The notes beneath the pieces are model-generated. The model searched no databases. It was not told where the DNA came from and saw nothing but the letters and a program-made list of their open reading frames with translations. 57,265 nucleotides of DNA. Source: a virus. Taxonomy: Duplodnaviria > Caudoviricetes. Location: positions 1 through 57,265 of IMG/VR virus record IMGVR_UViG_3300037247_000734. One strand, given 5' to 3'. How positions within the stretch are numbered: position 1 is the first letter of the stretch; each line of letters opens with the position of its first letter. Shown here in pieces: positions 140 through 57,126 of this stretch. Made by a program: the position numbers and the translations under genes.

Positions 140-669
140 TACAACTCCAGGGACACACACGGGAGACCGAGGGACCCTGGAATCTTCGGATCGCCCCCAA
201 GTTCCAGCCTCCAATCATCCAGGGGTGGACAGCCAAACAGGTTTTCCTCTCGATGGAGCAGCCGAACAAGGACGACAACTTCACCTTGATCCGTGTGCTC
301 TACTTACGTGGTGTGAAGAAGCCAAGTCTCGTGGCGGGACTGACATTCCGCAGGGCTCGGTGGCGTCGGCGTCCACAAGGGGGGGTCGAGGTCCGGATCA
401 AAAAACGCTACGGCAACTCGTTCCCACATCCCCTCCCTCTAGGTAGGTACACTGGCACCTGTATGTACGATATGGAAGAGGGGTTCGGAGTTTTTACCTT
501 CCAGGCAATAACTCTGAGAAGGGAACCAAAGCCACAGGAGCCGAAGGTTATCATTACGCCAGGAGATAGGGGTTTCAATGAGTCCCTTAGAAACGCTAAG
601 AGAACTCTTTCACGAACTCATGGCCTGGGAGGGCGAGGAGCTAATGCCGGTGGACTTCGTAATGGCTAG
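103..669 (+). CDS. Hypothetical protein
   Basis: ATG at 103 preceded by GGAGGAG; open frame to 669. Confidence 0.7.
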   Translation: MSNYGTMATSASLQLQGHTRETEGPWNLRIAPKFQPPIIQGWTAKQVFLSMEQPNKDDNFTLIRVLYLRGVKKPSLVAGLTFRRARWRRRPQGGVEVRIKKRYGNSFPHPLPLGRYTGTCMYDMEEGFGVFTFQAITLRREPKPQEPKVIITPGDRGFNESLRNAKRTLSRTHGLGGRGANAGGLRNG

Positions 670-1777
670 TTACCTGACGGCGTTCCTTCCTGGAGCAGTT
701 GAGAAGGCATGGGGTGACTTATGTGGTCCGCCCGCGATTGGCAAGACCGAGATACTTCGGGCGTTGGAGGACGGCCAACGTCGGACTGTCATGCTCGACA
801 CTCTCACGGAGAATGCCTTCTCCAGTGCCATGCGGGACCCCGACCAACCAGACAAGGACTTCTCTCTGCTCTATCAGTTGTCCAACGCCCGCGAGCCAAG
901 AGGTCCGAAAGTGCTGGTTATCAAGGAGTTTTCGACGTTCCTGAACATGCGGAGTGAGAAGGTGGACAAGATTTTTGCGGACCTTCGTGCGGCGTATGAT
1001 GGGACCTATGCGACGGCGGCGGGAAACATCGGTTTGGAGACCAGGACCGATCTGAACTTTGGTATGTTGACAGCCTGTACGGAGAAGCTCGATGAATTTC
1101 GACGGACTAATCAAACACTTGGTGAGCGAACACTGGTATGTCGTATTGGACGACAGACACGTTCATACGCTGCCCGTGCGGCGGTTGCGGATCACGTTGT
1201 ACGAGGCTGTCGAATCAAAAAGGCTTCGCTCCGTGCTCGAATCAAGATTGCCACTCGCAAGGCGATCGACGCGGCTATCACGGACATTAGAGCTAGCGGT
1301 GGTAAGGTTGTGCAGAGAGACTCGTTTATCCACCGGGTCGGACGCCTTGCTGCGATCGCTACTTCCGTCCGTTCGTTGCCTCTATCGAAGAAGAGCTATA
1401 CGAATCTGGCAGAGGGAGCTGGACGGTTTGCAGGGCAGCTCACTTCTTGGGGTGATTGTCGTGTCTTGTTTGACTCTCGGAAGTCTTGGACCGACGACGA
1501 TTATGCAATGGTGCGACGGATTGCTCAGGACACTATGCCCCCGGAGTCTCTTCGAGCCATTTCTTGTATCTGGAGGAGCGGACAAGATGAGGCAGTAAAA
1601 CCCATGTCGGGTAACGAAATCTGCGTCAGGGCAATATGTGACGGGAGTTTCTACCGGCAGTTGAGGCAGTGGGAGATCATCGGAATTCTCCACTCCTTCG
1701 ACACCGACGAGTACGGAATGAACCCGGAGTTCGCCAGGGACATTGAGTACACCGGCTTCATGGAGGGTCTGGAGTAA
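578..1777 (+). CDS. AAA+ ATPase, MCM-like; probable replicative helicase
   Basis: Walker A GPPAIGKT, Walker B-like VLVIKEF, LRAAYDG, LTACT sensor-like segment, LGER arginine-finger-like motif. Confidence 0.7.
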   Translation: MSPLETLRELFHELMAWEGEELMPVDFVMASYLTAFLPGAVEKAWGDLCGPPAIGKTEILRALEDGQRRTVMLDTLTENAFSSAMRDPDQPDKDFSLLYQLSNAREPRGPKVLVIKEFSTFLNMRSEKVDKIFADLRAAYDGTYATAAGNIGLETRTDLNFGMLTACTEKLDEFRRTNQTLGERTLVCRIGRQTRSYAARAAVADHVVRGCRIKKASLRARIKIATRKAIDAAITDIRASGGKVVQRDSFIHRVGRLAAIATSVRSLPLSKKSYTNLAEGAGRFAGQLTSWGDCRVLFDSRKSWTDDDYAMVRRIAQDTMPPESLRAISCIWRSGQDEAVKPMSGNEICVRAICDGSFYRQLRQWEIIGILHSFDTDEYGMNPEFARDIEYTGFMEGLE

Positions 1778-1977
1778 TGGAAAGTGAGCCGTGTGGGTAC
1801 TGTGGGAACGAACCGGATGAGTGCGTATGCTATCTGGCTCAGGACTTTCCGGACGACCCGATTGAGGAGTTGGATACTGACTACCTAGATTGGGAGTTCT
1901 ACGAAGAGGAGGAAAACAATGAAGGTGGTAGGCAAGAGAATCTTGGTGAAGCAGGCCAAGACGAAGGAAGTGAGTGA
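1777..1977 (+). CDS. Small acidic Cys-rich hypothetical protein
   Basis: TAATG coupling to the upstream gene; CGYC and CVC; very acidic. Confidence 0.6.
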   Translation: MESEPCGYCGNEPDECVCYLAQDFPDDPIEELDTDYLDWEFYEEEENNEGGRQENLGEAGQDEGSE

Positions 1978-2194
1978 AGGCGGTATCGTTATGACTGCCG
2001 CCTCAATCCAGAACCTTCCCTACGGGACTGTCGAACAGGTCGGTCCCAGAGCGGGGAGGTTGTGCGGTACTCTGAAGGTTGGTGACGTAGTCCTGTTCGA
2101 GGGGATGGGTGCAATTCCACTGAGGATCAAAGAGGGTTATGTGCTCATTGAACCTGGGGACATTCTGGCGGTTCTGGAAGAAGGAGAGTTCTGA
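1919..2194 (+). CDS. groES: Co-chaperonin GroES (Cpn10)
   Basis: GKRILVK, mobile loop SEGGIVM, VGP, LKVGDVVLF, DILAVL. Confidence 0.92.
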   Translation: MKVVGKRILVKQAKTKEVSEGGIVMTAASIQNLPYGTVEQVGPRAGRLCGTLKVGDVVLFEGMGAIPLRIKEGYVLIEPGDILAVLEEGEF

Positions 2195-2853
2195 TGTTGA
2201 CCAGTGGTGATGTTATGAAAGCCGAGAAAGAGGAATGGAAGGGGGACGCCTTCATTCTTACCCACGCAGGGAGAAAGTTCCGCTACGATGGTTTCGGACC
2301 CGAGGACATTTGCATCGAGGACATTGCCCACTCGCTGGCACACCTGTGTCGGTACACGGGACACACGATCATGTTCTACTCAGTCGCCCAGCACTCGTTG
2401 CTGGTATCCGAGAAGGTTCCGGGTGGTCCGGAGGACAAGTTGGTAGCATTACTACACGACGTAGCGGAAGCATACACCAACGATCTTGCCTCACCCTTGA
2501 AGAAGTACCTCCGACAGTTGCTCGACGAGGACGGCTACTGTCCCTATGCCGACTTGCAAAATAGGATCACAGCAGCGGTCTATGAGCGGTATGGAGTCGA
2601 GAGGATTCCCGACGACGTGCGACTGTACGACCAGGCAGCGGGAGTGTTCGAGGCCGAAGGCTTCATGGGGTTATCGGTCGGGGACCTGGGGAAGTACAAG
2701 TTCCCCACGGAGTTGCGAGGGCTGTGGGTACCCTGGGAACCCAGGGAGTTCGCGGGCAAGAATGCAGACCGCGAGTTCGGTGAGGTCGAAACAGAGTTCA
2801 TCCGTAGGTTTGAGGCGTTGATGTTCGCCGTCGGTAGGGAGAAGCTGGTATGA
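2194..2853 (+). CDS. HD-domain deoxynucleotide phosphohydrolase (YfbR/YfdR-like)
   Basis: EDIAHSLAHLCRYTGH, YSVAQHS, LLHDVAEAY.ND..SPLK. Confidence 0.88.
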   Translation: MLTSGDVMKAEKEEWKGDAFILTHAGRKFRYDGFGPEDICIEDIAHSLAHLCRYTGHTIMFYSVAQHSLLVSEKVPGGPEDKLVALLHDVAEAYTNDLASPLKKYLRQLLDEDGYCPYADLQNRITAAVYERYGVERIPDDVRLYDQAAGVFEAEGFMGLSVGDLGKYKFPTELRGLWVPWEPREFAGKNADREFGEVETEFIRRFEALMFAVGREKLV

Positions 2854-3116
2854 CAATGATTTCGAGACCCAACCCGTTTCGGGAACACAGCAAACTGCAC
2901 GACACCTTCGAGTTCATGGCGGATGGCGAGTGGCACACACTATCAGACATTGCTTTCCATGTCTACAGACATGACTACCGCCCACGACTTGCTACGGACC
3001 AGGTCACCTGTCGCAGGGTGGGGTCGGCCCTACGGACAATCCGAGCCACACCCGGCCTGGACGTGAACTACCACTACAGAAACGGCTATCAGTTGGTTGC
3101 CGCAGGCTACTTCTAG
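2850..3116 (+). CDS. Hypothetical protein, possible winged-helix DNA-binding protein
   Basis: ATGA overlap; MADGEWHTLSDIA...VGSALRTIR followed by a short beta hairpin. Confidence 0.5.
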   Translation: MTMISRPNPFREHSKLHDTFEFMADGEWHTLSDIAFHVYRHDYRPRLATDQVTCRRVGSALRTIRATPGLDVNYHYRNGYQLVAAGYF

Positions 3117-3420: not shown

Positions 3421-6400
3421 AAGGGCGGTTGCTGCTGGTTGACGCCGCGTTGTCGTCCGATCGTCTGGGGGTTGATGGTATCGAGCGGTCCGAGATTCCG
3501 GGCAGCGTTGAATCCGGGCCGTCCGATATTGGCGGTCCTCGCTGCCTGCCGCACCGCTGACGGTTCACCGAGGATGGTCGGGTCAACACCTAGGACCTGC
3601 TGGCCCTGAGTTCCCAGGGTCGCAGCGATCAACTGGACGAGTTGGTTACGGGCTGGCCCGGGCGGCAGGGTCCTGACGACCTGCTCCAGCCGTGTCATCT
3701 GACGCCGTAGCTGCATGGCCCGCATGTCCTTTTCCGTAACCGGCAAATTGAACCCGAACCGTTGCTTGAATCCCTCCAAAATCTGGTTGGCCTCGCTCGC
3801 GTTGTTCCGGAACCGGGCATCCATGTAGGTCTGTCGGGCCTCTCGAATCTGATCCCGATTCTTCACGAGGGTTTCCAGAAGGAGCGACTCTTTCTCGATG
3901 TCGCCTCCCTTCACACCCAAGCCGTACCGTATGATCTCCCAGGGACGATAGAACCCCTTGAGGGTCCCCCGTCCACTAAACAGGGCGATCCGGCCATCGG
4001 GGGCGGGCTGGCTGTAGTCCGCATAGGTCCGCTCGAACGCCTTGGCCGCTACTTGACCGACATTGCCGGGCAGGCCGGGAACGAGTCCCATCGCACGGAA
4101 GATCGCGGTCCCACCGGGGATCAACAGGGGGGTGGACCGTGCCAGTTCCGAGAAGTCACCTGACCCCAAGCCGACGCCAGCCGCACCCAAAATCTGGAAG
4201 AACGGAGGCACGACCGGGATGGGAGCAAGCACCTTGCCCGCCGGTGTGAACGTCGGCAGAGCACCCCCGATGAGGGCATCCCCTACGTTCCAGTTCATAG
4301 CTTCACCTAGCTCCATAGCGATGATGGAACCGGCGATCATGCGGGCGAACGTACCGGGGTTCACGCCCAGGAAGTTCATCTCTTTACCTGTGCGAGGGTC
4401 AATCGCCCCGGACCCCAATGACATCGCCGTAACGGTGGCGAACTCCAACATGCGGAGGGGGAACTGGGCTAGCTGTCGGACCAGGGGAGACCTATCCACC
4501 AAGAAGAATGGTGTGTTCTGTGGTCCCGTAAGGAACTGAGTCTTTTCCACGAGCCTCCGGGAGAATTCAATCGCGGCCTCCATAGGCATCTTCGCTCGAC
4601 GGGCATGGATCATTCCGGCCTCGAATGAGGCGAGCCGGACCGTGGTCTCGGACGTGGCGAACAGCGACATCATTGCCCGCTTCACCTTGTCTGCCACCTT
4701 AGTAACTCCGGAGGGTAGGGCAGCAATCTCGTGGGCATTGATGAGAGTATTCTGGACGGCTTCTTCGGTAAGAGGTGAAGCCACCAGTCCAGCCTTGCCG
4801 AACTCGGGGTACGCTGCTCGAAGAGCTTTGTCGTGTCCGAACCTTCGGGGACCCAGTCGCAAGGCAAAGTACTTGTGGGACTTCCGCATCGCCTCACCGA
4901 GCCCAGCAGCGGCCGTCCGGTATCCGATGACGGGGCCGGTGGTCAACACGAGCTGGAGAGTATTCTTGAGGGCAGAGCCGGGATTGAGACCTAGAGTAGA
5001 CAGGTAAAAGTACCCGGCTGTTTTCCGCTCCAGGTTGACGAGACTGAACGCACCCTTGGAGGATTTCATTCCTGCAACAAGGGAGTTGGTCGCCGACTCA
5101 CCCAGAATCTTACGGAGACCGGGACTCGATTCCAGCTTGACTGCCAGCGTTTGGTTGGCCTGGGACCACATCTGGGCACGTAGGGCATTGCGGAACGTCC
5201 CCCGTCCCATCGCCAGTGGAATGTAGGTCTCTTCGAGGATATGTGCTTGATAACGGGCTACGGAGTTCACCTTTCCCCGGAACTTTAGCTCGTCGAGCAT
5301 CTGTACTGCCTTCTCACCACCGCCTTTTATGGTCCAGGCATAGGTGCCAGCCAACGTGTGGTTGTATTGGCTGATGACAGGCATCAACTTGAGGCTGTAC
5401 TCCGAGGGCCTATGCTCGGCGAGGAGGGTCGCAATCTTCTGAGCCTCTGCTGGTTGGAACAGCTTGGGATAGGTTTCTTCCAACTCCCGAAGGGGGAGCC
5501 GTTTCATCATGGCAATAGTTGATCCACGTACACCTGCAACTCGTGCCTGGTGAATCAACCGCGACTTCGTAAGGATGTCTAAACGGGAACGAGCCCCCTT
5601 ATCCACAAGGTCTCCCATTGCGTCCAGGTCTTGGAAGCTGGGAAGCATCTGGAACTTCCGCTTGTATATTTCGGGCGAAGCCCACATTCCCATCTTCCGG
5701 ACTCCCGACTTAGCGAACTTCTTCGCACTGGCTGACTCGGTAAGTACCGCGATCAGCTTCCGGAAGTCCTCCTCGCTCTGGAGTATGCGACGGGGAAAGT
5801 AGTCGGGAATCTTCTTCGGGTTGCGGAGGAACTCGGACATTGCCTCACTGATGTCATCACCGAACCCCGCCGCCTTCTGACGACTGATAGCTGCAAGGAT
5901 ACGCTTTCGTCCCTTGACATCTGAGAACACTTCTCGCCACTGATCGTCGAGCGTCTGCCGGAAACCCTTCGCCAATTGCAGCGTCGGTCCTCCCATCCTC
6001 TGTTCGAGGCCCGGCATCAGGGTCCCAACTCCGTCAATAACAGTAGTGGTCTCTCCGCTCCCCAACCTGATCTTCCCATGCTTGCCCTGGAACCCACGAA
6101 GAGGCTTATGTAGTCCATCAAGCCATGCCGCAACCATCCTCTGTTCGTTCAGCTTAGGCAGATGACCTGTGCCACGACGGAATGTCTCCAAGTGAGCCGC
6201 GAACAACCCACCGTACTTGGATCGGAAGTCGTGCACGTCCTTGATGATGAATCCGAACTCATCGACGAAGTCCGCTGCCGATCCGGTACGCTTCATCCCC
6301 TGGAAGAGACCCTGCATCGAGGCCAGGTGCCGAAGGACCGGAAACTTGGCTGCGAAGCCCTGCATCGCCTTGGACAGCTTGAAGATGTTGTCACCCGAAG

Positions 6401-6695: not shown

Positions 6696-7875
6696 CCATC
6701 TGATTGAACAACTGATCCAGTAGGAACTGAATGTCCTTGCCTGGTCGTCCTCGTCGTAGAACGCCCTGTTGTGGGTCGGACCCGATTCTCCGCTCGGTAC
6801 TCGTCAGCGTCTCGGTACTCTGACCCGTGTCCGCCAGTATCCTCACCACCTCCTGGAACAGTTCCGGCTCGAACCTTTGCATAGTCACCTTACGACGAGC
6901 CACAGCCTCCTGCTTATCCACGATATCCCGTAAGAAGTCCACACTTGACGACGGACCGAGACCCTCGAACCCTTGGAGAGCGAGCTTCCTCGCCCGACCC
7001 TCCCGACCCATGATACCGACCGCTCGGTGAGCCTCAAGAACACCAATCACTCCCATGCCCACCGCACCGAAGGCCGTCTTACCCAAGAGACCCGCAGCCT
7101 TTCGACCGATTCCGGCTCCCGTGGCAAGCCCCCCCTTCTCCAGGGCCTTGACAGCGGAGCCCGCTACCTTCGGCAGCTTGCCCGCATTAGTCTGCTTGAG
7201 TAGGTCCTGCATCCCCTGGGGGAGGACTGCCGTACCTTCCCTCTTAAACAACCGATTGAACTGTCTGAGAATGAAGGGGTCCTCACCTCTACGGGCCAGT
7301 ACGGATAGAGCCTGGTTCGACCCCACACTGGCCACAACCTTCGGGTCTACTGCCCGAAGTTCCTTGAGGATACGCCGACCATCTGCCGTCTGGAACTCAG
7401 CCTCCTTGGCAAGGTCGTCGAGCATCTCGGTCCACTTCGTCATTAGCTGTTCAGGCTTCGCCCCTTTAATCGCAGCCCTCGCAGCCTTCAACGCCTCCTT
7501 GGCTTCCCCCAGGTTCTCTTTACCAATTACGCCTGTAACCGACTTCGGGAAACCCTTCTTACCCATGAGGTGCTTCGCACCCAGGGACTCAATACGCTCA
7601 CGAGCCTCAGCACCAACCCCCATGTCATCCATCTCATTAAGGAAGGTTGCCCAGATGTCGTCGATACTCCGACCTGCACCGGCAGTACCAACGGACAACT
7701 GGCTAAACCGCAATAGCCGACGGAAGGCTCCTGGAGCCTCCGTAAGATTGGCCGTACCGACGCCAATATTGCGAGGGGTTGTGCGACGGGAACGAGTTCT
7801 TTCCTTCGGAGCCCTCCGTGTTTTCTGGAGGGGTCGTCCATCGGGTCCCACGAGTTTTGATTTTCGTTCTGGCAT
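6679..7875 (-). CDS. Putative internal virion protein
   Basis: Basic, helical, Gly/Ala hydrophobic segment; position after the nozzle gene. Confidence 0.5.
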   Translation of the reverse strand: MPERKSKLVGPDGRPLQKTRRAPKERTRSRRTTPRNIGVGTANLTEAPGAFRRLLRFSQLSVGTAGAGRSIDDIWATFLNEMDDMGVGAEARERIESLGAKHLMGKKGFPKSVTGVIGKENLGEAKEALKAARAAIKGAKPEQLMTKWTEMLDDLAKEAEFQTADGRRILKELRAVDPKVVASVGSNQALSVLARRGEDPFILRQFNRLFKREGTAVLPQGMQDLLKQTNAGKLPKVAGSAVKALEKGGLATGAGIGRKAAGLLGKTAFGAVGMGVIGVLEAHRAVGIMGREGRARKLALQGFEGLGPSSSVDFLRDIVDKQEAVARRKVTMQRFEPELFQEVVRILADTGQSTETLTSTERRIGSDPQQGVLRRGRPGKDIQFLLDQLFNQMGGGGQ

Positions 7876-8319: not shown

Positions 8320-10608
8320 CTACTGATTGCTTTTCCGAATGGTATCCCGAATTTCTTCGGGAGTAAGAGTCTCTCTGATCCGCTTGGCTTCGCTAGGGAA
8401 TGGCAGAGGAACGTCACCCTTGAAGGCTGCACGAGCTCCAAGGTGAGCAGGAACTCCGAGAGTCCGTCCACCAATACCAGCAGCCATAGCAGTTCCACCA
8501 TAGACTAACGCTGATTTGACTCCACTGTGTGCTAAGCTAATCATCGTAGGAACCTGCTCAGCAAGCACTCCGATTGCCCCGCCCTTCTCGAAAGACTCGC
8601 CGATACTTGGGGGTCCCTCTCGTTGGCTGCTGGCCTCGCGGGCTTGCCGTGCCCGCTGGTTACGCTTGTAATTGAAGGACGCTCCCTCGACTGCATTCTT
8701 AACATAGCCCGAACGCTCCTGTTCCACCCTCGTCTGGTTGATGTAGGCTTGCAGATTCGGGGAAGTCAGAGGTTCCAACTCAGCAGTGATAAAGGCTGAC
8801 ACCTCGTTGAGAACGTCCGGACCCAGGTCGTTGCCGATCTTGATAATTGCGTCCATATGAGTCATGGTAGACTGGAGGTCCGCTGCATTGATACGGTTGA
8901 GGCTACCTTGTACTTCACCGGGAGGAGTCGCGGCCACACGCTCGGCAGCACCCTCCAGGGCCTCTTCCGTACTCATAAGTTCCTGAACCCGACGTTCATT
9001 CTGTTCACCTTCGTCGAGGATGCGGGTGGCGTAGACATCGGCGAGACGAGCGTACCGACCCAGTTCGCCTCGGAACTGTTCCAAGATGCTGTTCTTCTCG
9101 AAGCCCATGTGTGTCCGGTTGGCAAAGGCAGCAGCTTCACCCAAGCGGCTCTGCATCACATCCAGTCCCTTGACGAGGCCAACTGCACCCGATGGTACTC
9201 CAAGTGCCAAGGCTGTCTGTTCCGGTCCAAGCTCCGCTTCCATTTGCTGAACGAGTGAACTTGCGAGGCTGGCACCCCCTTCGCCGACGTTCTGGAACTC
9301 GGTCATCATGTGTTCTTTGATGTTATACAGGGCAGACTCAAGAGCCATCGCAGTCGCCAGTTCCTTGTCGGACTTCAGTTCCCTCTTGCCATCGAAGATT
9401 TCCGCTGCGATGACAGCAATTTCATCACCGTTCCTGCCACCACCGAAGATTTCCGCAACAGCCCCAAACGTGATCTGACGACCCATGTCGTTGAACTTGT
9501 TGGGGTTGGGGTCCGCCAGAAAGTTTTCCAACGACCGTTCAATCGCACTCCCAGCCATTGGGTTGAACATCTTGTTGTAGCCCTCATACATCTCAAGGTG
9601 GGGCCTAAGTCGATCCATTGACTGGACTATAATCCCTGCATTCTTCCGGTCCAACTCCTGTCGGAGGGACTTGTCGGTGGCGAACCGTAGATAGTCGTCT
9701 CGGGCCATCGCATCGAGAACCACGTCGGAGCTTACCAGTCGAGGAGAGTACCCCTCGGGCAACCCAAAGTTCTCTTCGTCGTTGAACACAACGCCATCCC
9801 GGGGGTAGCCCCCGAATATCTTCATCTCGAACATCTTGTCGGGGCTGATCTCACCAGGTTCGGCAATCCGCCTACCGCTCTGATGGGGAGGATCAATCAT
9901 CGGCATCATAAGAGGCTCGACGACAAGGTTGGACAAGTCCATAGTCCCGTCACCCAGGATCGTCGTCTGTACATTCTTGTTGTGTACCCGATACGCTTCG
10001 GCAATGTGACGGTCGTCATAGCTATCGTCGTGGTTGGCCGACATCAGGTCGAGCAGGTGACGACGCTTCTTGAGTTCTTTTCGACCTTCCGAACTTGAGA
10101 ACCATCCAGCCGTGAGCATCTCATCGGTGCGAGCCGAGTAGGCTGCAATAGCCTCCGAGTTCGCCGCCTTCTTAGAGAGAAAGGAATCGTGGTAGTTCGT
10201 AATCTGGTCCCGCTGGCCCTGAATAGCCGCACCCATCGCCGCTGCTTCCTTGGCTGCATCCTGTTGTAGCTTCGCGTTCAACTCTTGTTGCTGTACCGCG
10301 AACGTCTTGTCCTCAGCTCGTTCCCGTTGCCTCGTTGATTGTTGTTCCGCACGCTCAAGGCCCCTGGTTACTTGATTGGCCACCTCAGTAGCCGCTCCAC
10401 CACCGGCCTGTGCCGCAGCAGCAACTTGCCTCTGATTCTCTTCCTGGGCCTGCTGCATGGTCCTGAGTAGTTTGTTGAACTGCTCCTGTTGCTGCTGTTG
10501 CATGGCAACCAACGCCGCAATCGGGCTGGACTTAACCCCCGGTCCGAGCATCTGAGGGATGCGAACCTGTGTGCCCGCCGGTGCCGCCTTATCTCTTGCT
10601 CTTGGCAT
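8320..10608 (-). CDS. Putative internal virion protein, Gln-rich coiled coil
   Basis: 762-aa helical ORF with Q-rich N-terminus; position. Confidence 0.55.
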   Translation of the reverse strand: MPRARDKAAPAGTQVRIPQMLGPGVKSSPIAALVAMQQQQQEQFNKLLRTMQQAQEENQRQVAAAAQAGGGAATEVANQVTRGLERAEQQSTRQRERAEDKTFAVQQQELNAKLQQDAAKEAAAMGAAIQGQRDQITNYHDSFLSKKAANSEAIAAYSARTDEMLTAGWFSSSEGRKELKKRRHLLDLMSANHDDSYDDRHIAEAYRVHNKNVQTTILGDGTMDLSNLVVEPLMMPMIDPPHQSGRRIAEPGEISPDKMFEMKIFGGYPRDGVVFNDEENFGLPEGYSPRLVSSDVVLDAMARDDYLRFATDKSLRQELDRKNAGIIVQSMDRLRPHLEMYEGYNKMFNPMAGSAIERSLENFLADPNPNKFNDMGRQITFGAVAEIFGGGRNGDEIAVIAAEIFDGKRELKSDKELATAMALESALYNIKEHMMTEFQNVGEGGASLASSLVQQMEAELGPEQTALALGVPSGAVGLVKGLDVMQSRLGEAAAFANRTHMGFEKNSILEQFRGELGRYARLADVYATRILDEGEQNERRVQELMSTEEALEGAAERVAATPPGEVQGSLNRINAADLQSTMTHMDAIIKIGNDLGPDVLNEVSAFITAELEPLTSPNLQAYINQTRVEQERSGYVKNAVEGASFNYKRNQRARQAREASSQREGPPSIGESFEKGGAIGVLAEQVPTMISLAHSGVKSALVYGGTAMAAGIGGRTLGVPAHLGARAAFKGDVPLPFPSEAKRIRETLTPEEIRDTIRKSNQ

Positions 10609-11773: not shown

Positions 11774-14311
11774 CTATGCTACCCCTTGTCGTGACTGGGC
11801 CTCGGACGATCCGAGCATACCCTTTACCAGGACGGCTTGAAGTTCCCAATCCTGATTGCCTGCCTTGAATTCCAGGTACGGGAATAGACGGGTACTGGAG
11901 TGGTTCAAGTATACCGCCGTCTTGTCGGGAACGATGTTGAAGTTCGTCTCTACGGAGCCCAAATCAGTTTCCATCTGCCGAACACCGAACCGGAACTTCC
12001 CGTTCGTGTCGGTTGTGCCGGTGTGCCCGCCCAAATCGGAGAAGCTCGCCATGAACGACTTCGTGGTCTTTCGGGTGAACGGGTCCGGCTGGCCCGTCGC
12101 TCCCACCATAACAGGCAGAACCAGCCTCGTGACCACGGGAGCCACGGAGTAACGATCGCCCACAGCCGGGGTCCCGGACATGGTGGGTACGGTCAACTGA
12201 GTGGCACTATCCCGCGAGGTGATCGTAGCTGACTCCCCCAACAGGTCCCCCGAGAGGATGTGGAGTGTGAAACCAGCACACCCGGTCGGGAAGGTCGCAG
12301 TAGAGTCGGCGATGTTGGTCGTACTCGTTCCCGACGTGAAAGTCCCATTGACTGTTTCCCCTGCTGCGGTACCGCACATCGAACGCTTGCCCATCTCGCG
12401 GGACCCGTCGATGATGTGAACCAACCCCGCATCCGTTACAAAGTATGCCCGAACCGACCCGTCAGTCAAGACATCGGGGCCTGCTGTGAGGTGGGTCCAC
12501 GGGATGTCCTCTAGTCGGGTTACTGCACCCGTGGACTCCCAAAGAATATACACTTCCTTCTTAGTCGTATTCAAGAGGATCAGGGCACCCACCTTGGCAT
12601 CGAATTCTACATGAACGCTACCTAGAGAACCGGCCCACTCGGAGTCATCGAGGAGAACCCTGTCCAGGACGGTTACGGAGTTGATGGCTCCCGTGTTGCC
12701 GTCGATCTGCTTGAGACCCGATGACGTAACGATGAACAGTGAGTTGCCCACGCCCGTGCACCCAAAACGAGAGACACCCCCCAGCCGAAACTGGAGTCGG
12801 TTGATGACCACCTCGGAACCGGATCGCGTCACTCGATAGATGCTCGCATTGGTTACGCCGAATAGATGGTCACCTGTAGGGTAGAGCCCGAAGAACCGTT
12901 CCGCCGCATCATCGGGTCGATACTGCTGTTCGGGAGGAAAGTTCTCCGGTTCGTTGGCAGTAAGGATCGACCACACGATCGCTTCTGGAACCTGTTCGGA
13001 CTCGTCCCAGTCCTGATCCGGCGTAGCTGGCTCCTCAATGTCGGTAATGCCCACCAGAAGTCCATCCCATGCCTGGAGCCTCTTGAGCCGGGGAGTCGGA
13101 TGGAAGGTATCCAGGTATGCCGTGTACTGATGCTGTACCAGCAGTCCCGTAGGACCGAACCACTTACACTTGGCATCACCATACGTCGTACCGAGAGTTG
13201 AGTCGTTGTCGAAGTAGAGTTGAAAGAGACTCGTTCCCGTCGTGTACGTCTCCTTTTCCAGGTATTCGTTTATGAGATACAAGTTGCCCACCGGCGTATA
13301 TTTGTCGAAGGAAACTCCGCCACTGTCAATCGGTGACTTCCAAAATCGGAACCCGTCCACGTGGGGAATACCCCAATTGATGATACACGTTCGTTCGTGG
13401 AGATTGGCCTTGATCTGGTGAGTCGCACCGGCCTGGTTAGCCGGGAGATTGATCTCGTCGAGGAAGTACCGCAAGGCCGAGTTTCCCGTACCAAGGGCAG
13501 TCTCCGTCATAAGTCTCAGGTATGACCGGAGGTTGTGTTTTCGACTGATAAGCTCCACCGCCAGGGTATACTCACCTCCGGGTGTAATGTGAGCGGACGG
13601 GCCGTACACCTGGCTCGCCATCGCGTCTGAGGAGTCTCCTACAAAGGTGCCGTCGTTGTCGGCATTCAAAGGATGTCCCAGACACCGACGAGGCATGAGG
13701 CCCATGAAGCGATGCTCGAAACTATCAGAGACATACTTGTCCCAGTCATTGATCTTGTAGTCCCAGAAGTATGCCTTGTTGTAGGGCAGTTCCTTATTTT
13801 GCCACTGCGTCACATTTGAGGAGGTGTCCCCACTGATACACACGTAGATGTAGCGGCCCAGCGACGTAATGTCGAACTGGTTATAGCTGGTCAGCTTGAA
13901 GTCGTCGTAGGTATCGTAGTCCTCCAGTTCCACCACGTCGGTTGATCCGTCGCTGGAGTCCCGGTATGCGAAGTACAGCGACTTGCCGGTCCCTCCCGGA
14001 TTGTCGGCGAGAATCGCAAGACCCTTGAACGTGTGGGCGGTATTCCCCTTTTGTACAGAAACGTACTTGACAAGTACGACGTTGGCAACAGTCGTAATCG
14101 TATGACCTGCTTCGGGGTTCGGGACCCCGTGGATCGTCTCGTCGGCCATACCGGGGAACGGACGGATTGCACCCATAAAGCGGCCATCCACGCCGGTTGC
14201 CTCCACGAGCTTCGGGAGGGCTACGGCGTGCTTGTTGACCTTTGCGTCCATACCCGGCACCAGGAGCGGGTATGTCCACACGGTACTATCATCATGTTCC
14301 CGTTGAGGCAT
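11774..14311 (-). CDS. Tail nozzle / stabilization protein (P22 gp10 or tail tubular B-like)
   Basis: Beta-rich 845 aa; AIVWS...EPENFP, GDHLFGVT..SIY, VGNSLFIVT..G propeller-like pattern; position. Confidence 0.65.
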   Translation of the reverse strand: MPQREHDDSTVWTYPLLVPGMDAKVNKHAVALPKLVEATGVDGRFMGAIRPFPGMADETIHGVPNPEAGHTITTVANVVLVKYVSVQKGNTAHTFKGLAILADNPGGTGKSLYFAYRDSSDGSTDVVELEDYDTYDDFKLTSYNQFDITSLGRYIYVCISGDTSSNVTQWQNKELPYNKAYFWDYKINDWDKYVSDSFEHRFMGLMPRRCLGHPLNADNDGTFVGDSSDAMASQVYGPSAHITPGGEYTLAVELISRKHNLRSYLRLMTETALGTGNSALRYFLDEINLPANQAGATHQIKANLHERTCIINWGIPHVDGFRFWKSPIDSGGVSFDKYTPVGNLYLINEYLEKETYTTGTSLFQLYFDNDSTLGTTYGDAKCKWFGPTGLLVQHQYTAYLDTFHPTPRLKRLQAWDGLLVGITDIEEPATPDQDWDESEQVPEAIVWSILTANEPENFPPEQQYRPDDAAERFFGLYPTGDHLFGVTNASIYRVTRSGSEVVINRLQFRLGGVSRFGCTGVGNSLFIVTSSGLKQIDGNTGAINSVTVLDRVLLDDSEWAGSLGSVHVEFDAKVGALILLNTTKKEVYILWESTGAVTRLEDIPWTHLTAGPDVLTDGSVRAYFVTDAGLVHIIDGSREMGKRSMCGTAAGETVNGTFTSGTSTTNIADSTATFPTGCAGFTLHILSGDLLGESATITSRDSATQLTVPTMSGTPAVGDRYSVAPVVTRLVLPVMVGATGQPDPFTRKTTKSFMASFSDLGGHTGTTDTNGKFRFGVRQMETDLGSVETNFNIVPDKTAVYLNHSSTRLFPYLEFKAGNQDWELQAVLVKGMLGSSEAQSRQGVA

Positions 14312-14352: not shown

Positions 14353-14799
14353 TCACGTCGTCTGTGTGAGCAGTTCGTATCCCCATTGAGCAGTAGTACG
14401 CTTAACCACGAACCACGTCAATCCTCCTCCTCCATCAATAACGAAACCAGCGGACCCCGCAGGAGGATTCCCGAATATGGCGGCTAGTTCAGTAGTAGTA
14501 GGAGGGTTACTTACATCAGCCAACGAAATCGGAAGCAACACTGTTCTGGCAAGCCCCTCCTCCTTGATGAGGTCGGTACGAGCTTTCGATCCTTTACTTT
14601 CATCAACCGGGGTTACACCCTCCAACTGAACTTCGGGTGCCAACCGCCCCTCGTCAGGAGGAGGTTGATCCGGACCGGGCTCGCTGAACATAGGCCGTTG
14701 TCCCCATTGTGAAGTAGCCGAGCCAAGAGCCGGACGTAGTGCAGAACGGGAACGAGTCTCCGGCTTATTGGGGTCTCGTAATCTGTCCCAGTATCTCAT
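14353..14799 (-). CDS. Hypothetical virion protein
   Basis: TAATG coupling with the upstream gene. Confidence 0.6.
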   Translation of the reverse strand: MRYWDRLRDPNKPETRSRSALRPALGSATSQWGQRPMFSEPGPDQPPPDEGRLAPEVQLEGVTPVDESKGSKARTDLIKEEGLARTVLLPISLADVSNPPTTTELAAIFGNPPAGSAGFVIDGGGGLTWFVVKRTTAQWGYELLTQTT

Positions 14800-32633: not shown

Positions 32634-32851
32634 CGGAGGTGTGACGGGGGTCCGGACGTCCTAGGGAGGGTCTACTCGTTCCCGTATGCACTTTAAGAAG
32701 GAAAGTGGGGCTTTAGGTATGGGAAAGGGGTCCCAGATCGGTTTTCAACACGGGTAGTCATTCCCTTCCCCCCAGCCGTCGCCGGGGGCCGATAACCTTG
32801 GGGCCGAGGGTCCGATAGCCCATCCCCCGGCCTGTTGTTATCGGACTGCGA

Positions 32852-41311: not shown

Positions 41312-41629
41312 CTAAAGTTTTTTTGAACCCGATAATACCTTCAATGCTTCGGCGATGAAGCGAGGATTATCGGCAAGGAATTGGGTAAGGGCTTCTCCCA
41401 AGATAACGAGGATGGCCTCCTCGTCCTTGAAGTCATGCCCTGCAACCATAGCATGGAGACTCTCGTGGATCACAAGCTCGATCTTACGGGAACGAGTCGT
41501 CCGACGGAGAACTCGGATGGTGGTCGTGCCGCTATCCATATCGGCGGCGACATCAGACCCGAGTTCCCTTTGGGTAGCCGACTTGACCTTGTAGGTGTGA
41601 GCACCGATCTTGACTGACCTGGGAAGCAT
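41312..41629 (-). CDS. Small HExxH (zincin-like) phage protein
   Basis: P..VKIG...YKV start; VIHESLHA; AGGAGG RBS. Confidence 0.7.
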   Translation of the reverse strand: MLPRSVKIGAHTYKVKSATQRELGSDVAADMDSGTTTIRVLRRTTRSRKIELVIHESLHAMVAGHDFKDEEAILVILGEALTQFLADNPRFIAEALKVLSGSKKL

Positions 41630-41699: not shown

Positions 41700-41933
41700 C
41701 TACCTACTGAGCAGGGTGTCCAGCTTCTCGTTCACACTGTCCATCTTGCCCGACAGGCTGGAAAGCTCCCTCTCGATCCACTTGGCATCACGAATGTAGG
41801 GACTCTCCACCTGGATCATCTGGCTTACCTCCACTCGGTTCACGTACCGGCCAACCACAGCCACGTACATGACTCCACAGGTGATTAGCCCCCCCACGCA
41901 GGCCGCGACTACTCGTTCCCGTTGTCCGTTCAT
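41700..41933 (-). CDS. Single-pass membrane protein with coiled coil (possibly lysis-related)
   Basis: Hydrophobic VVAACVGGLITCGVMYVAVV; C-terminal heptads. Confidence 0.5.
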   Translation of the reverse strand: MNGQRERVVAACVGGLITCGVMYVAVVGRYVNRVEVSQMIQVESPYIRDAKWIERELSSLSGKMDSVNEKLDTLLSR

Positions 41934-46455: not shown

Positions 46456-47034
46456 TTACTCGTCTGCGATACAACGCATACAGAGCATATACACTTTCAC
46501 TGCCGTATTATGGTTACTTGAGTCGGCCAACGTCAGCACGATCCGTAGACTCTCGTCCACGTCGATGACGGCGTTGTCCTGGTTAAACTGGCTCGTTCCC
46601 TGTACCAGACCGAAGAGTTCATCGTCGTTTATGCCACTAAGTGCGATCGCATCGGTGATCGTTACAAAGCTTTCCGAATCCGCCCCGTCGCCCCGCGAAA
46701 TGGTGATGGTATCCGACGCTATGGTCCCGGTCTCATCGAGTACAACGCCCCACGCCAGGCACATCTTGAACTTGTAGGGGGCGTCCTTGTTGAACACCGC
46801 GAAGTTGTGGACCTGTCCGTCTGTCTCGGCCCCGTGGCATACTGCCTCGATGATGAAGGGAATCCCGAAGCTAACCCTTATGGCCGCAGCAAGCTCGCCC
46901 CCTGGATCGGCGGCTGCACCCATATCCTCAGCCTGGGTCTGCCCCGTGGGGTCTTGCATCACCAGTCCGTCAAGACGGCTGACAACCTCTAGTTCCTGAT
47001 CCGTGCCAGCGAGATGCTTTAAGCTAATGCCCAT
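46456..47034 (-). CDS. Beta-rich acidic protein, first gene of the array operon
   Basis: DAPYKF, DESLRI, terminal CMRCI. Confidence 0.65.
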   Translation of the reverse strand: MGISLKHLAGTDQELEVVSRLDGLVMQDPTGQTQAEDMGAAADPGGELAAAIRVSFGIPFIIEAVCHGAETDGQVHNFAVFNKDAPYKFKMCLAWGVVLDETGTIASDTITISRGDGADSESFVTITDAIALSGINDDELFGLVQGTSQFNQDNAVIDVDESLRIVLTLADSSNHNTAVKVYMLCMRCIADE

Positions 47035-47122
47035 GTTTCGTGTTCCCGCTAAGAATTAAAGTATGGCTGACCGGGCTGGAATCCACTCGGGACCCAACCC
47101 GATCAACTCGTTCCCACGCTCT

Positions 47123-47151
47123 ATTATAGGACCCCCGGGGTCCACTGTCAA
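47123..47151 (-). promoter_or_regulatory. Consensus sigma70-type promoter with palindromic spacer
   Basis: TTGACA-GTGGACCCCGGGGGTCC-TATAAT. Confidence 0.8.
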
Positions 47152-50168: not shown

Positions 50169-50933
50169 ATGAAAACTCAGAGAAGAATTATCCTTCCGGA
50201 CCTACACCTACCCTTCCACGATAAGAAGCTCTTGGCGTGCTGGCTGGAACGGCTCCGTTCCCGTATTTGGGACGGCGTGGACATCATAGGCGACTTCCTC
50301 GACTGCTATACGCTGAGCCGATTCGACGCCAATCCCACTCGAAAGGACACTCTCCAACAGGAGATCGACGAGAGCCATAAACTCCTACAGTATATCCGTA
50401 CCATATCTCCCGAAGCGGACATCAGGTATTCGGAGGGCAACCACGAGGATCGACTTCGTAAGATGCTGTGGGGAAAGGCCCCCGCTCTGGCTCACCTTCG
50501 CAACCTTACGATCCCCGACCTTCTGGACCTCCAGAACTTGTGTATCAAATGGCACAGTACCCAGAACCCCTACAAGATCAGCGACTTATGGTACACCCAC
50601 GGAGACGTTCTCCGAAAGCACGCAGGCATGTCGGCCCGAGCCAAATCTGAGGCCATCCACGGGTCAGTCATTGTTGGGCACACTCACCGTCAGGGTTGGT
50701 CGCCCCTGACGACGTGGAGCGGCACTGACGACGCCTATGAAGTCGGGTACATGGCTGATCCTACTCAGCTTGACTATGTCCGTACCCCCTTCAACTGGCA
50801 GTCGGGCTGGGCCGAGGTACAATTTGTTGATGGTACCCACCATGTGGACTTCTACCGAACGGTTGACCGTGGACGGGAACGAGTCGTAATCGGACCCGAG
50901 GGAGTGATAGCACAATGGAGAACACGAAGATGA
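50169..50933 (+). CDS. Calcineurin-like metallophosphoesterase
   Basis: DLH, GDFLD, GNHE, HG and GHTH motifs. Confidence 0.9.
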   Translation: MKTQRRIILPDLHLPFHDKKLLACWLERLRSRIWDGVDIIGDFLDCYTLSRFDANPTRKDTLQQEIDESHKLLQYIRTISPEADIRYSEGNHEDRLRKMLWGKAPALAHLRNLTIPDLLDLQNLCIKWHSTQNPYKISDLWYTHGDVLRKHAGMSARAKSEAIHGSVIVGHTHRQGWSPLTTWSGTDDAYEVGYMADPTQLDYVRTPFNWQSGWAEVQFVDGTHHVDFYRTVDRGRERVVIGPEGVIAQWRTRR

Positions 50934-52367: not shown

Positions 52368-52928
52368 GTGATTGCGACGGTGACGATCGACAGGCGGGAG
52401 CAGAGGGAGCTGAGGTTCCCAGAGGTAATGAAGTGGTATGGGGACCGGGCCACCACTGGACAGATAGTCATAGTCCGGACCCAGACTAAGCAGATGCCAG
52501 TCGGCGACTATGCTCTCAAAGGTTTCGAGGAGACCTGTATCATCGAACGGAAGGGCTCCATTCGTGAGCTTGCTACGAACCTGTTGGGTGACGATTGGGC
52601 TCGGGCGATGGATGCCTTCAAACGGTTGGCCGACGCCACGGCCCACCCGTACCTCATGGTGGAGTGTACCCCGGCGGACCTCAGAACTCGTTCCCGTTGG
52701 GTACATGAACCGGAGCGTGTGGTTGATGCACTCGCTGCCCTCATCGAGAAATTGGACTTACGCCTCATCCTGTGCGGCAGGGTGACAGATGTAAAGCAGA
52801 AGCGGACAGTGGGCGAGCTGATGCTACGACTCATGTTGGCCCACGCTTACCAACGGGAGACTGACTATGGCGAAGTCGAGGATGTTATCAAAAAAATTGG
52901 AGCAGGAAATCCACGAGGCTCTGGCTAA
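52368..52928 (+). CDS. ERCC4/XPF-family nuclease (probable resolvase)
   Basis: IDRREQ, GDY, IIERKGS..EL. Confidence 0.88.
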   Translation: MIATVTIDRREQRELRFPEVMKWYGDRATTGQIVIVRTQTKQMPVGDYALKGFEETCIIERKGSIRELATNLLGDDWARAMDAFKRLADATAHPYLMVECTPADLRTRSRWVHEPERVVDALAALIEKLDLRLILCGRVTDVKQKRTVGELMLRLMLAHAYQRETDYGEVEDVIKKIGAGNPRGSG

Positions 52929-53034: not shown

Positions 53035-53641
53035 TCTGGCGGGGGGAAGAGTTACAGAAGCAATGGGCAGACAGTTCATATTGGAGCAGGAAATGAGACA
53101 TGGGAACGAGAAAACTGAGTTCGAGACCGGGGCACACCGGGACACCGCCGAAGGGAAAGGAACCCCCAGTCTAATAAGTCCGATATTGATTCACCGACTT
53201 GGAGTGCTTCTTGAGGAGGGAGCAAAGCATTACGGGACCGATAACTGGAGGAAGGGAATGCCGTACCGTCGCGTGATCGACAGTATGATCCGACACACCT
53301 TCCTTGAGTTGGCCGGGGATAAAGAGGAGGACCACCTCGCTGCCATCGTCTTTGGGTGCATGTGTCTGATGACCTACAAATCTGACAAGGTCCTTGACCA
53401 GAAGCTCGACGACAGAGATGAGGGCCTGAAAAAAATTCTTCCATCTCTCTTGACTCCGACCCCGCCGAAGCCTAGACTTGAACGTGATGTACGCGAACAA
53501 GAGTTATCAACGCCCTCAAAGTGGCCAACGAAGATGCAGCCTTGCAAGGGTAGCTGTGGGGGAATGACGGTCTGGGAGGATGGGTATTGTCAGACTTGTA
53601 CAGTAAGGGGGGAGAATCCTAACCATGTCTGCTCTCAATAA
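53021..53641 (+). CDS. DUF5664 dATP/dGTP diphosphohydrolase-domain protein
   Basis: FETGA.RD...GK...SLI, GAKHYG..NWRKG, S..RH, EDHLAA; alternative start at 53093. Confidence 0.85.
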   Translation: MGRSNLAGGRVTEAMGRQFILEQEMRHGNEKTEFETGAHRDTAEGKGTPSLISPILIHRLGVLLEEGAKHYGTDNWRKGMPYRRVIDSMIRHTFLELAGDKEEDHLAAIVFGCMCLMTYKSDKVLDQKLDDRDEGLKKILPSLLTPTPPKPRLERDVREQELSTPSKWPTKMQPCKGSCGGMTVWEDGYCQTCTVRGENPNHVCSQ

Positions 53642-55014: not shown

Positions 55015-55015
55015 G

Positions 55016-56132: not shown

Positions 56133-56353
56133 GGTGGAATTTTTTGTGCGGGGATAGCCTTCGTGGGTTCCTCAACGAGAAGGACGAAGTGAAGAATACA
56201 AAGAGTGTGGAGGTCATATTCGACGATGGAGAGTCAACAGGTGTCCTGGTGGAACTAGAGAACGGGGACCTCATCCATTTCTGTTCCAGGGAGACCGAGC
56301 ACGATGGCTGTCGTAAATCACTGTCTGTTTCTACCACAAAAGGAGACGAGTAG
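56129..56353 (+). CDS. Hypothetical protein
   Basis: ATGA overlap. Confidence 0.5.
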   Translation: MRWNFLCGDSLRGFLNEKDEVKNTKSVEVIFDDGESTGVLVELENGDLIHFCSRETEHDGCRKSLSVSTTKGDE

Positions 56354-56868
56354 TGTCTGATGATGCATTTTTGGAAGTTCTAGCAGGTTGTACTGATGCT
56401 TGTGCGGACATGGACCTGAGCGACGACGGTTGGAGTCCACCGGACGGTCCATACGACGTAATGGTTGAGGACGTCGCTTCGGGTATTAAGGAAAAGGACG
56501 GGATCAACAACGCTTGGATCAAGCCGGTGTTCACCATCCTGGACGGTGACTTCAAAGGCCGCACGTTTTGCGATTTCTACTGGATCGAGCCTGGGATGAC
56601 GGAGCCGACGATCAGTATCAAGAACCTCTGTCGGTTTGCTACCTGCCTCCAGGGCAGTGAGACAAGGAACCCAGTCGAGGCGGCTGAGATCGCCAAGGCA
56701 TCCGTTGGTGAGTTTATGAGTGTCGAGGTCTATCGTACAACCTCAAAGAAAACACGCAAGACCTACGCGAACATTCGGTTCTGTCAATGCCTCCCCGCAA
56801 CCGACGTACCGGCTGAGGAGGCCGAGGAGGCCGAGGCAGGTGCACCACACGAGGCAACCAAAGGCTAG
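56353..56868 (+). CDS. Putative ssDNA-binding protein (DUF669-like)
   Basis: PDGPYDV.V, FTILDG.FKGR.F.D; acidic tail; follows the Sak4-like gene. Confidence 0.7.
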   Translation: MSDDAFLEVLAGCTDACADMDLSDDGWSPPDGPYDVMVEDVASGIKEKDGINNAWIKPVFTILDGDFKGRTFCDFYWIEPGMTEPTISIKNLCRFATCLQGSETRNPVEAAEIAKASVGEFMSVEVYRTTSKKTRKTYANIRFCQCLPATDVPAEEAEEAEAGAPHEATKG

Positions 56869-56900
56869 GGGTCAATCCCCTCTTTTACAGGAGAAGTAAG

Positions 56901-57086
56901 ATGAAGATTCAGTTTATCGTGGTCAAGGTGGGAACCACTAAGGAGCCCACAACCATAGGGGATCAGGAAGCGGTCCTCGAAACGTTCTCGAATCGACTGC
57001 AAGAGCAGTTCCCCAACACACCGATCCAGGTGGTGCCTGAGCACACCTCAATAAAGATCGACGGGAACGAGTACGCACCCAAGTAA
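56901..57086 (+). CDS. Hypothetical protein
   Basis: AGGAG RBS. Confidence 0.6.
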   Translation: MKIQFIVVKVGTTKEPTTIGDQEAVLETFSNRLQEQFPNTPIQVVPEHTSIKIDGNEYAPK

Positions 57087-57126
57087 CGGGAACGAGTTGG
57101 GGGAGCCGGTTCCGAGCGGATCGGCC

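Follow-up and report, generated by a model that had tools for sequence, protein, structure and literature searches.

A private DNA word repeated across the genomes of a family of uncultured phages: lineage-specific versions, selection and a candidate reader

The word and its genomic setting

The virus record IMGVR_UViG_3300037247_000734 of IMG/VR (Duplodnaviria; Caudoviricetes), which was analysed at its full length of 57,265 bases and is referred to here as the window, carries a non-palindromic 12-mer, ACGGGAACGAGT, that recurs throughout the genome on both strands. This 12-mer is the lineage version of a private word carried by a family of uncultured phages of 50-57 kb.

The window corresponds to the whole record, which is rated 100% complete, has a G+C content of 54-58%, and ends in a direct repeat of 139 bases (window 1-139 = 57127-57265), the first 126 of which are identical. 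It is a closed or terminally redundant genome, despite the label linear given in IMG/VR. The genes run rightward at 1-3116 and 47461-57100, and leftward at 3417-47412. The large terminase (TerL) was recognised through PHROG 38 (1.8e-34), and Pfam recognises PolA, a family-A DNA polymerase with an N-terminal UDG-like domain (47461-50121), a MazZ-like dGTP/dATP diphosphohydrolase domain (53021-53641), a PD-(D/E)XK nuclease, an AAA_24 ATPase, and a DUF669 protein. A GroES homologue, a metallophosphoesterase (50169-50933), and an HD-motif hydrolase (2194-2853) are also encoded.

Fourteen exact copies of the word are present, nine on the plus strand and five on the minus strand. Those at 7786..7797, 14746..14757, 21378..21389, and 41486..41497, all on the plus strand, are antisense inside the genes 6679-7875, 14353-14799, 20913-21881, and 41312-41629, respectively, and two other plus-strand copies (31682..31693 and 31947..31958) are antisense in the open reading frame (ORF) 31637-31966. 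On the minus strand, the copies at 13229..13240 and 30826..30837 are sense inside the genes 11774-14311 and 30545-30964, that at 52686..52697 is antisense in the gene 52368-52928, and that at 32674..32685 falls within the large non-coding region 32433-33165, while the copy at 41911..41922 lies 13 bases past the stop of the gene 41935-42345, sense to leftward transcription, with a moderate hairpin downstream (-20.9 kcal/mol). The remaining plus-strand copies are that at 50873..50884, which is sense in the metallophosphoesterase gene, and a tandem pair after the DUF669 gene, at 57061..57072 and 57086..57097.

The one-mismatch copies are CCGGGAACGAGT at 4075..4086 (+), ACGGGAACGAGC at 5583..5594 (+), 10316..10327 (-), and 39969..39980 (-), and TCGGGAACGAGT at 12323..12334 (-) and 38754..38765 (+), the last of these being just upstream of the AGGAGG ribosome site of an E2-like gene on the minus strand. 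The variant GTGGGAACGAGT, which has GT in place of AC, occurs at 416..427 (-), inside the gene 103-669, at 24462..24473 (+), and at 47106..47117 (-), where it forms an operator-like copy at the start of a leftward transcript. Two further copies of the 9-mer core are CAGGGAACGAGC at 46591..46602 (-) and ATGGGAACGAGA at 53100..53111 (+). The original prediction, which was made from the sequence alone, had placed every one of the exact, one-mismatch, and GTGGGAACGAGT copies correctly, and was also right about the variant at the start of the promoter transcript and the near copy beside the ribosome-binding site of the E2-like gene.

Four of the exact copies are found within 1.9 kb, at 30826-32685, among small ORFs of membrane and lipoprotein-like type, which are possibly lysis genes and adjoin the large non-coding region. 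The following stretch, 32686-38753, has no copy of the word and holds the CCGATAA heptamer array noted in the original prediction.

Among the 69 ORFs scanned against Pfam, no match was found to an integrase, ParA/ParB, a classical repressor, or a DNA methyltransferase, and neither a nickase nor an HNH domain was recognised. Given that no integrase, ParAB, or L5-type repressor was found, nothing points to lysogeny. No close cultured relative was recovered by megablast, the matches of TerL and PolA being distant (≤29% identity). Only one sequencing run contains the DNA of the window, a marine sediment metagenome, which is probably its source.

Enrichment of the word in the window

The word is by far the commonest k-mer of the window at every length from 8 to 14, the next unrelated 9-mer having nine copies. 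The 12-mer did not arise once in 100 dinucleotide shuffles, and 20 sites are found when one mismatch is allowed, against 0.33 expected. In all six one-mismatch copies the altered letter is the first or the last, and never an internal one. The 9-mer core GGGAACGAG is present 25 times, and the 8-mer core GGGAACGA 31 times.

The enrichment survives a null model that respects coding, as had been proposed in the original prediction. In 300 synonymous-codon shuffles, in which each protein and the codon pool of each gene were kept, the 12-mer fell from 14 copies to a mean of 3.4 (maximum 6), this residue consisting mostly of copies outside the shuffled genes, and the 9-mer fell from 25 to 5.5 (maximum 9). 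The 31 core sites, of which 12 are sense to the gene, 14 antisense, and 5 outside genes, occupy all three frames in both orientations. A peptide motif is ruled out by this use of all frames and orientations, just as the prediction had held.

Lineage-specific words in related phages

Public data contain 101 relatives of the TerL, several of them on contigs of 50-55 kb, and AAA_24 was used in a metagenome scan (at least three loci). The comparison set comprised five near-complete IMG/VR relatives, G003 to G007, with 45-63% TerL identity, together with fragments, the window itself being G000. In the search of related phages that the original prediction had suggested as a check, the core GGGAACGAG is nearly absent from these five genomes (0, 0, 1, 0, and 0 copies).

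A dominant, non-palindromic, purine-rich word is found in four of the five near-complete relatives and in three further records (G008, G010, and L023), with an expectation of 0.5-0.9 copies for each. The words are GCAGAGACAGG in G004 (43 copies; also given as CAGAGACAG), AAGCCGGGAGAG in G005 (34 copies; also GCCGGGAGA), AACCGGGAGAGT in G006 (31 copies; also ACCGGGAGA), ATCGGGAGAGAGT in G007 (22 copies; also TCGGGAGAG), ACCGGGAGAGA in G008 (16 copies in 40 kb), and TGTGGGTGAGAT in G010 (14 copies in 22 kb), while the word of L023 is similar to that of G004 and has no separate count. Several of these words share a two-part shape, formed by CGGGA, zero to three letters, and GAG(T). No dominant word was found in three more distant records, G009, G011, and G012.

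A closer relative, L158 (approximately 72% nucleotide identity), has 10 copies of GGGAACGAG in 20.9 kb, with different flanks and no preference for a 5' AC. The fifth near-complete genome, G003 (99% complete), has only six copies of a 17-mer, TGTAGAGGAGTAGAGTC, at 747, 8956, 35046, 39700, 39939, and 39996. Five of the six are intergenic, one of them lying at the leftward promoter and one before the hairpin that follows the DUF669 gene, and a large non-coding region holds an inverted pair of copies; almost all are of the regulatory type. G003 looks like a regulatory-only state of the system.

The lineages also differ in the module of the replicative helicase, which in G004 to G007 is a protein of approximately 470 amino acids of the D5_N/DUF5906 type, and in G000, G003, and L158 is replaced by a P-loop protein of 395-399 amino acids located elsewhere.

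Selection, orientation and turnover of the sites

In every genome compared, the two strands carry the word about equally often. In five genomes, the sites inside genes lie with the gene in 61 cases and against it in 79 (n = 140, p = 0.15). Intergenic positions account for 32 of 172 sites, approximately three times the 6% share of non-coding DNA (p = 2e-8), and 81% of the sites are inside genes, where their position along the gene is flat. Spacing is near random, with coefficients of variation of the gaps of 0.70-0.91 against approximately 0.95 for random placement, and regular spacing is not convincing, given that only G007 reaches p = 0.048.

Sites are retained between genomes well above the background of arbitrary 8-mers, with 19 of 33 kept from G005 to G006 (against 15%), 4 of 7 from G000 to L158 (against 8.8%), and 4 of 10 from G006 to G007 (against 7.9%). 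Positions kept in L158 are those of the window sites at 416, where the letters are also the same, 4075, 46591, and 50873. At the site 21378, the core is retained in L009, L011, and L012 amid diverged flanks, encoding the peptide TRSR, where L010 has VTQQ, and the homologous place of the site 24462 is without the word in the same three records (L009, L011, and L012).

The differences between genomes at these sites are substitutions, with no insertions. An origin of the sites by insertion was considered and rejected, the 13-base gap seen in L010 being an artefact of alignment in which VTQQ replaces TRSR. Where G005 and G006 share homologous sites, the flanks have been altered in concert to fit the consensus of each genome (AAGCC... 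to AACC...T), which fits a sequence-specific reader evolving together with its sites.

The word also comes close to filling the places that are open to it. In the genes of the window it stands at 15 of the 19 places where the 11-mer could be written by synonymous changes (23 of 50 for the 9-mer), and in four relatives at 65-75% of such places, a count that is partly circular because the protein may itself have changed to admit the site. Given that the enrichment survives the codon-aware null, that the sites are conserved above background, and that the writable places are nearly saturated, selection acting on the DNA word itself, genome-wide, is supported. For most sites, the pattern fits a function governed by their number, irrespective of place or direction.

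The surroundings of the dispersed sites were folded in six genomes, and none has a hairpin of the kind found in the regulatory modules described below. Downstream of the word there is only slightly more structure than in random DNA (mean -11.0, as compared with -10.0 kcal/mol; p = 0.015), and the 50 letters on its 5' side form less stable folds (-8.3, as compared with -10.0 kcal/mol; p = 8e-8). On that side the consensus has A/T preferences, as would be expected if a wing or a second domain contacted an A/T-rich minor groove.

Word and hairpin modules at regulatory positions

Each genome contains many promoters of the sigma-70 consensus, only one of which has the word just downstream in the sense orientation. 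This is the leftward promoter beside the divergent polymerase gene, which in the window (47123..47151, minus strand) has a perfect TTGACA-N17-TATAAT and heads the leftward operon. The GT variant begins five letters past the -10 box, and a leader hairpin of -28.7 kcal/mol (approximately 47066..47105, minus strand) follows directly after the word. In all eight lineages examined, the lineage's own word lies in sense 4-55 letters past the -10 box of this promoter, and a hairpin of -23 to -35 kcal/mol, with a T-run in G004 to G008, is found within a few letters of it. The word begins 4-8 letters past the -10 box in G000, L158, G003, and G004, which places it at or next to the expected start of the transcript, and in G005 it begins at +55.

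A second module follows the DUF669 gene in six of the seven lineages examined, with the word immediately 5' of a GC-rich hairpin. In the window it consists of the tandem pair, the hairpin at 57099..57130 (+), and the tRNA that follows. Given that the dispersed sites lack such a hairpin, the design of word plus hairpin is special to the regulatory copies.

The tRNA-like gene lies at 14-86 (repeated at 57140-57212) and scores 49 bits against Rfam RF00005, while ARAGORN calls no tRNA, which fits the shortened anticodon arm noted by the earlier reading of the sequence. T-arm-like sequences also flank the word and hairpin module in G005 and G007.

A candidate reader of the word

The last gene of the rightward operon, 2850..3116 (+), overlaps the stop codon of the HD hydrolase gene and encodes a protein of 88 amino acids, for which no sequence match was found in Pfam, PHROG, or the PDB. 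Its AlphaFold2 model (pLDDT 77, pTM 0.68) has three helices and a beta-hairpin (H15-23, H31-38, H51-66, E70-75, and E79-85), and, among solved structures, the best look-alikes returned by Foldseek are ToxR in its DNA-bound form and the domains of SaeR, PhoP, and CovR from the OmpR family. An independent model from the ESM Atlas matched clusters of Trans_reg_C (TM 0.65-0.69). The protein is thus predicted to be a winged-helix DNA-binding domain, and it may be considered the best and most economical candidate in the window for the reader of the word.

The homologue at the same gene position, or slot, in L158 has 94 amino acids and 41-46% identity, the lowest of the clear orthologues, the others having 51-83%. 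An exhaustive profile search of 1.84 billion proteins returned 52 representatives of this family (A8, found in G000 and L158; P0102-P0153), mostly of 75-125 amino acids and with an N-terminal NPYR..SKL motif. A8 is a family of small proteins that has so far gone undescribed. Its putative recognition helix, RRRTASALRTIR, is arginine-rich and nearly invariant across 40 diverse members.

In G004 to G008, the slot is occupied by a different family (A4) of 163-222 amino acids with two winged-helix units, as indicated by matches to PadR (4e-6), MarR-type chains in the PDB (0.03), and double winged helices in the Atlas. A hidden Markov model search found A4 absent from the window, and a profile search of viral contigs recovered it in only five genomes, all of them already in the comparison set. 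A winged-helix gene fills the slot in all seven word-rich records that include it, and in neither of the two word-poor records (G003 and G009), in which neither A8 nor A4 was found, G003 having no gene at all at that position. A reader of the C2H2 zinc-finger type was considered and rejected, with no multi-finger array in any of the six genomes.

Other genes of the window

The HD hydrolase, the MazZ-like domain, and the UDG-like domain of PolA suggest nucleotide-pool editing or a modified base. PurZ was tried and rejected as the identity of the protein encoded at 578-1777, which is of the P-loop type and has no similarity to any solved adenylosuccinate-synthetase-like chain. An operon resembling Ubl/E1/JAB/E2 systems (36734-41303) is kept across the family, with homologues in G003 to G007 by BLAST, and its matches in Pfam are below threshold (ThiF 0.0023, ThiS 0.0021). 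Behind the word-bearing promoter, at 42355-45402, are four tandem paralogues of approximately 250 amino acids, with only weak matches to ConA-like lectins; one to three copies are present in G004 to G007, and none in G003, where the contig breaks. The 4.7 kb block is free of copies of the word.

Interpretation and alternative explanations

The most likely reading is that the word is the recognition site of a sequence-specific DNA-binding protein of the phage, which evolves together with its sites. The original prediction of a protein-binding site selected genome-wide stands as regards selection on the DNA word, and binding by a protein is the best reading of it. As a full account, in which a phage-encoded protein would act at a few operator copies and at many others through their number alone, this proposal seems to us about as likely to be right as wrong.

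Under this proposal, the promoter copy would be an operator-type switch on the leftward operon, and the copies adjacent to hairpins would form a switch on read-through into the distal rightward genes, including the gene of the reader itself. The dispersed copies may be decoys that titrate the protein as the genomes replicate, tying its free level to the number of genome copies, or they may carry a coat by which the phage's DNA is marked as its own, or serve as direction-independent blocks.

Several points weigh against this proposal. The Foldseek E values of the candidate are weak (0.05-0.4, with TM 0.45-0.61), despite probabilities of 0.9-0.99, and the AlphaFold model of the tandem A4 protein is poor (pLDDT 44). 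The near-invariance of the helix RRRTASALRTIR means that it cannot alone explain the lineage-specific words. No sequence homology is detectable between A8 and A4, and the fact that these families are unrelated, yet the words are related (CGGGA..GAGT), argues for one conserved reader. The negative correlation between slot and word rests on two genomes, and the contig of G003 breaks inside the leftward operon, so that other genes may be missing there, while the six regulatory copies that G003 keeps in the absence of a slot gene imply that something else reads them. Finally, a DNA-bound protein has no obvious action upstream of a terminator hairpin, where a role at the level of RNA fits better.

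A more specific version would make the word a private self-tag and genome counter, with the decoys soaking up a repressor until a switch is thrown at a set number of genome copies. The leftward operon, and read-through at the terminators flanked by the word, would not switch until replication had reached that number, and word and reader would diverge so that co-infecting relatives could not read each other's clocks. This remains doubtful, if worth bearing in mind, and, if true, would mean that phages in which no lysogeny genes are seen use sites spread over the genome in a novel way that does not depend on direction.

The hairpins bring forward the possibility that the word is read or used as RNA. 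The leader RNA would begin with the word and end in a terminator hairpin, the 3' end of the DUF669 message would be alike, and such an RNA could serve as a guide or a sponge, or in antitermination, with the genomic copies as its pairing partners or as competitors for a shared binding factor. The word stands at or next to the expected transcript start in G000, L158, G003, and G004, directly followed by the hairpin, and the adjacency of word and hairpin is conserved even where the distance to the promoter varies, as in G005 (+55). Furthermore, tRNA-like elements flank the second module, G003 keeps the modules without a slot protein, and a guide RNA would explain both the concerted change of all sites and their indifference to the orientation of the DNA. 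On the other hand, pairing would need an antisense bias that the genic sites do not show (79 against 61, p = 0.15), the leader copy of G000 is the GT variant whereas the genome-wide form is AC, and around the sites nothing outside the word is conserved in a way that would match the flanks of the leader. The dispersed sites also lack the hairpin, no effector protein that uses a guide was recognised by Pfam among the 69 ORFs, and Rfam finds only the tRNA, all of which makes this reading unlikely.

A factor of the host could also be the reader, with the word acting as a Chi-like signal, as an uptake-type sequence, or in the evasion or exploitation of a defence, and the lineages differing because their hosts differ. 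This would require no reader from the phage, which fits the lack of a conserved candidate, and it agrees with a word that is non-palindromic, G-rich, purine-skewed, and present on both strands, in which density prevails over position and saturation is nearly reached, as expected if each extra copy protects. The dialects of DNA uptake sequences have been likened here to the variation of the word among lineages.

This possibility was approached with a scan of 185,579 species, each represented by a single genome, for pairs of 11-mer copies no more than 30 letters apart, of which a chromosome with the word every 2-5 kb should yield several. The scan returned 104 stretches, and all of the 80 that were inspected are local tandem repeats with periods of 12-24, so that no bacterial or archaeal genome with dispersed copies was found. 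The tandem repeats of the 11-mer (periods of 12, 15, 18, 21, and 24) are presumably repetitive coding sequences, some loci being conserved in Kribbella, Microcoleus, and Streptomyces. In viral contigs, the same scan picked out only four, which are unrelated, carry tandem or coding repeats of local extent, and show no similarity to the window by tblastx. The mimicry of a host motif, one of the options of the original prediction, is thus unsupported, being ruled out by the pair scan for the genomes covered, and the actual host may lie outside the collection. In addition, Chi sites have 5-8 letters, against 10-13 for the word, the conserved copies at the promoter and hairpin are left unexplained, and G003 has the core genes of the family but no dispersed copies. 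A host reader is for these reasons an unlikely explanation, no better placed than RNA.

A conserved replication or recombination enzyme of the phage could be the reader, either through the PD-(D/E)XK nuclease and AAA_24, for which the word would be a private Chi, or through a sequence-specific primase, with the word seeding recombination-dependent replication or the priming of the lagging strand on both strands. All lineages have the genes of the PD-(D/E)XK nuclease, AAA_24, DUF669, and PolA, the relatedness of the words from one lineage to another would be accounted for by a reader passed on vertically, and the near-equal strand split and the spacing of 1.3-2.1 kb suit a process that involves two strands. 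Against this, G003 has all of the core genes but only six copies, lineages whose words are similar have different helicase modules, the copies at the promoter and the hairpins again find no explanation, and no primase or Chi system is known to use 10-13 letters, which renders the reading improbable.

A covalent event at the word, either a site-specific nick (of the T5 or tf type) or a sequence-specific base modification, would be in keeping with the nucleotide-pool enzymes that are encoded (the MazZ-like domain, the HD hydrolase, and the UDG-like domain on PolA), and the localised nicks of some phages do have asymmetric consensus sequences of 9-19 letters. It is, nevertheless, quite improbable, considering that the 69 scanned ORFs include no recognisable nickase, HNH domain, or methyltransferase, and that neither a nick nor a modification requires the word at most of its writable places. 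Lastly, a mutational or gene-conversion drive would be expected to leave the word near saturation and indifferent to position, but a functionless by-product of this kind is hardly credible, as the sites arise by substitution and not by insertion, mismatches are never internal, several copies are found at regulatory positions that are conserved, and a sequence-specific agent would still be required.

Comparison with known systems

The repeats of 17 bp in Cluster O and the start-associated sequences of Cluster K are reportedly cluster-specific, with tens of copies and no identified reader, and are said to be palindromic or tied to gene starts, unlike the word described here, which is asymmetric, mostly intragenic, and without a positional rule.

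Antitermination in leaders is known from lambda nut (boxA and boxB), from Q-dependent late promoters, and from RfaH and ops, the last being an element of 12 letters. The promoter module is similar in that a short, asymmetric sense element lies beside a hairpin in the leader of a long operon, with a second copy in the opposite operon, as in nutL and nutR. Elements of this type are found once or twice per genome and on the sense strand only, whereas the word is scattered through coding DNA in both orientations.

Chi sequences, read by RecBCD or AddAB, are G-rich, asymmetric, abundant in the host, and read one way, with a benefit that grows with their number. The word is likewise a G-rich, asymmetric, over-represented sequence, and both orientations would be useful on a permuted linear genome, but copies at a promoter and a terminator are present here and no enrichment was seen in the host scan.

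The DNA uptake and uptake signal sequences of the Neisseriaceae and Pasteurellaceae have 10-12 letters, are non-palindromic, and occur on both strands, inside genes and beside terminator hairpins, in different dialects, as a property of the chromosome of a competent host. The prevalence of density over position and the related words of related lineages are common to both systems; the word, however, belongs to phage lineages, no bacterial genome with dispersed copies was found in the scan, and G003 is without them.

Full-text literature searches brought up no description of this family or of a near-saturating phage word that is free of orientation. The family is a tractable case, with a defined 12-mer, a candidate reader of 88 amino acids, one promoter-leader module, and natural variants, and, if the reader is confirmed, orthogonal pairs of word and reader would be useful parts. 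Such words could also be employed as lineage markers for uncultured phages.

The closest parallel is provided by the stoperators of Cluster A phages (PMC9283540, PMC6550527), sites whose orientation is correlated with that of transcription and which lose function when reversed, with operators at promoters and stoperators in short intergenic spaces. Their motifs drift with the repressor and the phylogeny, and are read by a monomeric immunity repressor in the cases of L5 gp71 and TipsytheTRex (PMC6550527, PMC9283540). The likeness includes an asymmetric word of 12-13 bp in tens of copies (20-40 per approximately 50 kb in Cluster A), one copy at a promoter (the early promoter in Cluster A), a consensus for each lineage, and an asymmetric site with a candidate reader of the winged-helix or helix-turn-helix type, of which the A4 proteins of the relatives have two domains per chain.

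Unlike in Cluster A, orientation is random (61 sites with the gene and 79 against), 81% of the sites are intragenic, and the word stands at 65-79% of its writable places. There is also no integrase, ParAB, or repressor of the L5 gp71 type (with helix-turn-helix and Stoperator domains) among the 69 ORFs, and the candidate reader is a single winged helix of 88 amino acids without sequence similarity to any Pfam family. As for a consensus that tracks its repressor, the words here differ by lineage and the sites have changed in concert, and the candidate readers, few in number, fall into two unrelated families. The stoperator-like action envisaged by the original prediction fits only loosely, in that there is one promoter-proximal copy and a word for each lineage, and it fails for orientation with transcription and intergenic location.

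Given this, the word system works somewhat like the stoperators of Cluster A, but is not a member of that class. Those stoperators are the only genome-wide word system of phages that is understood, and they depend on orientation and lysogeny, whereas the present family, with its 14-43 copies, no rule of orientation, and no lysogeny genes seen, points to a second and broader means by which phages may mark their DNA or control it.

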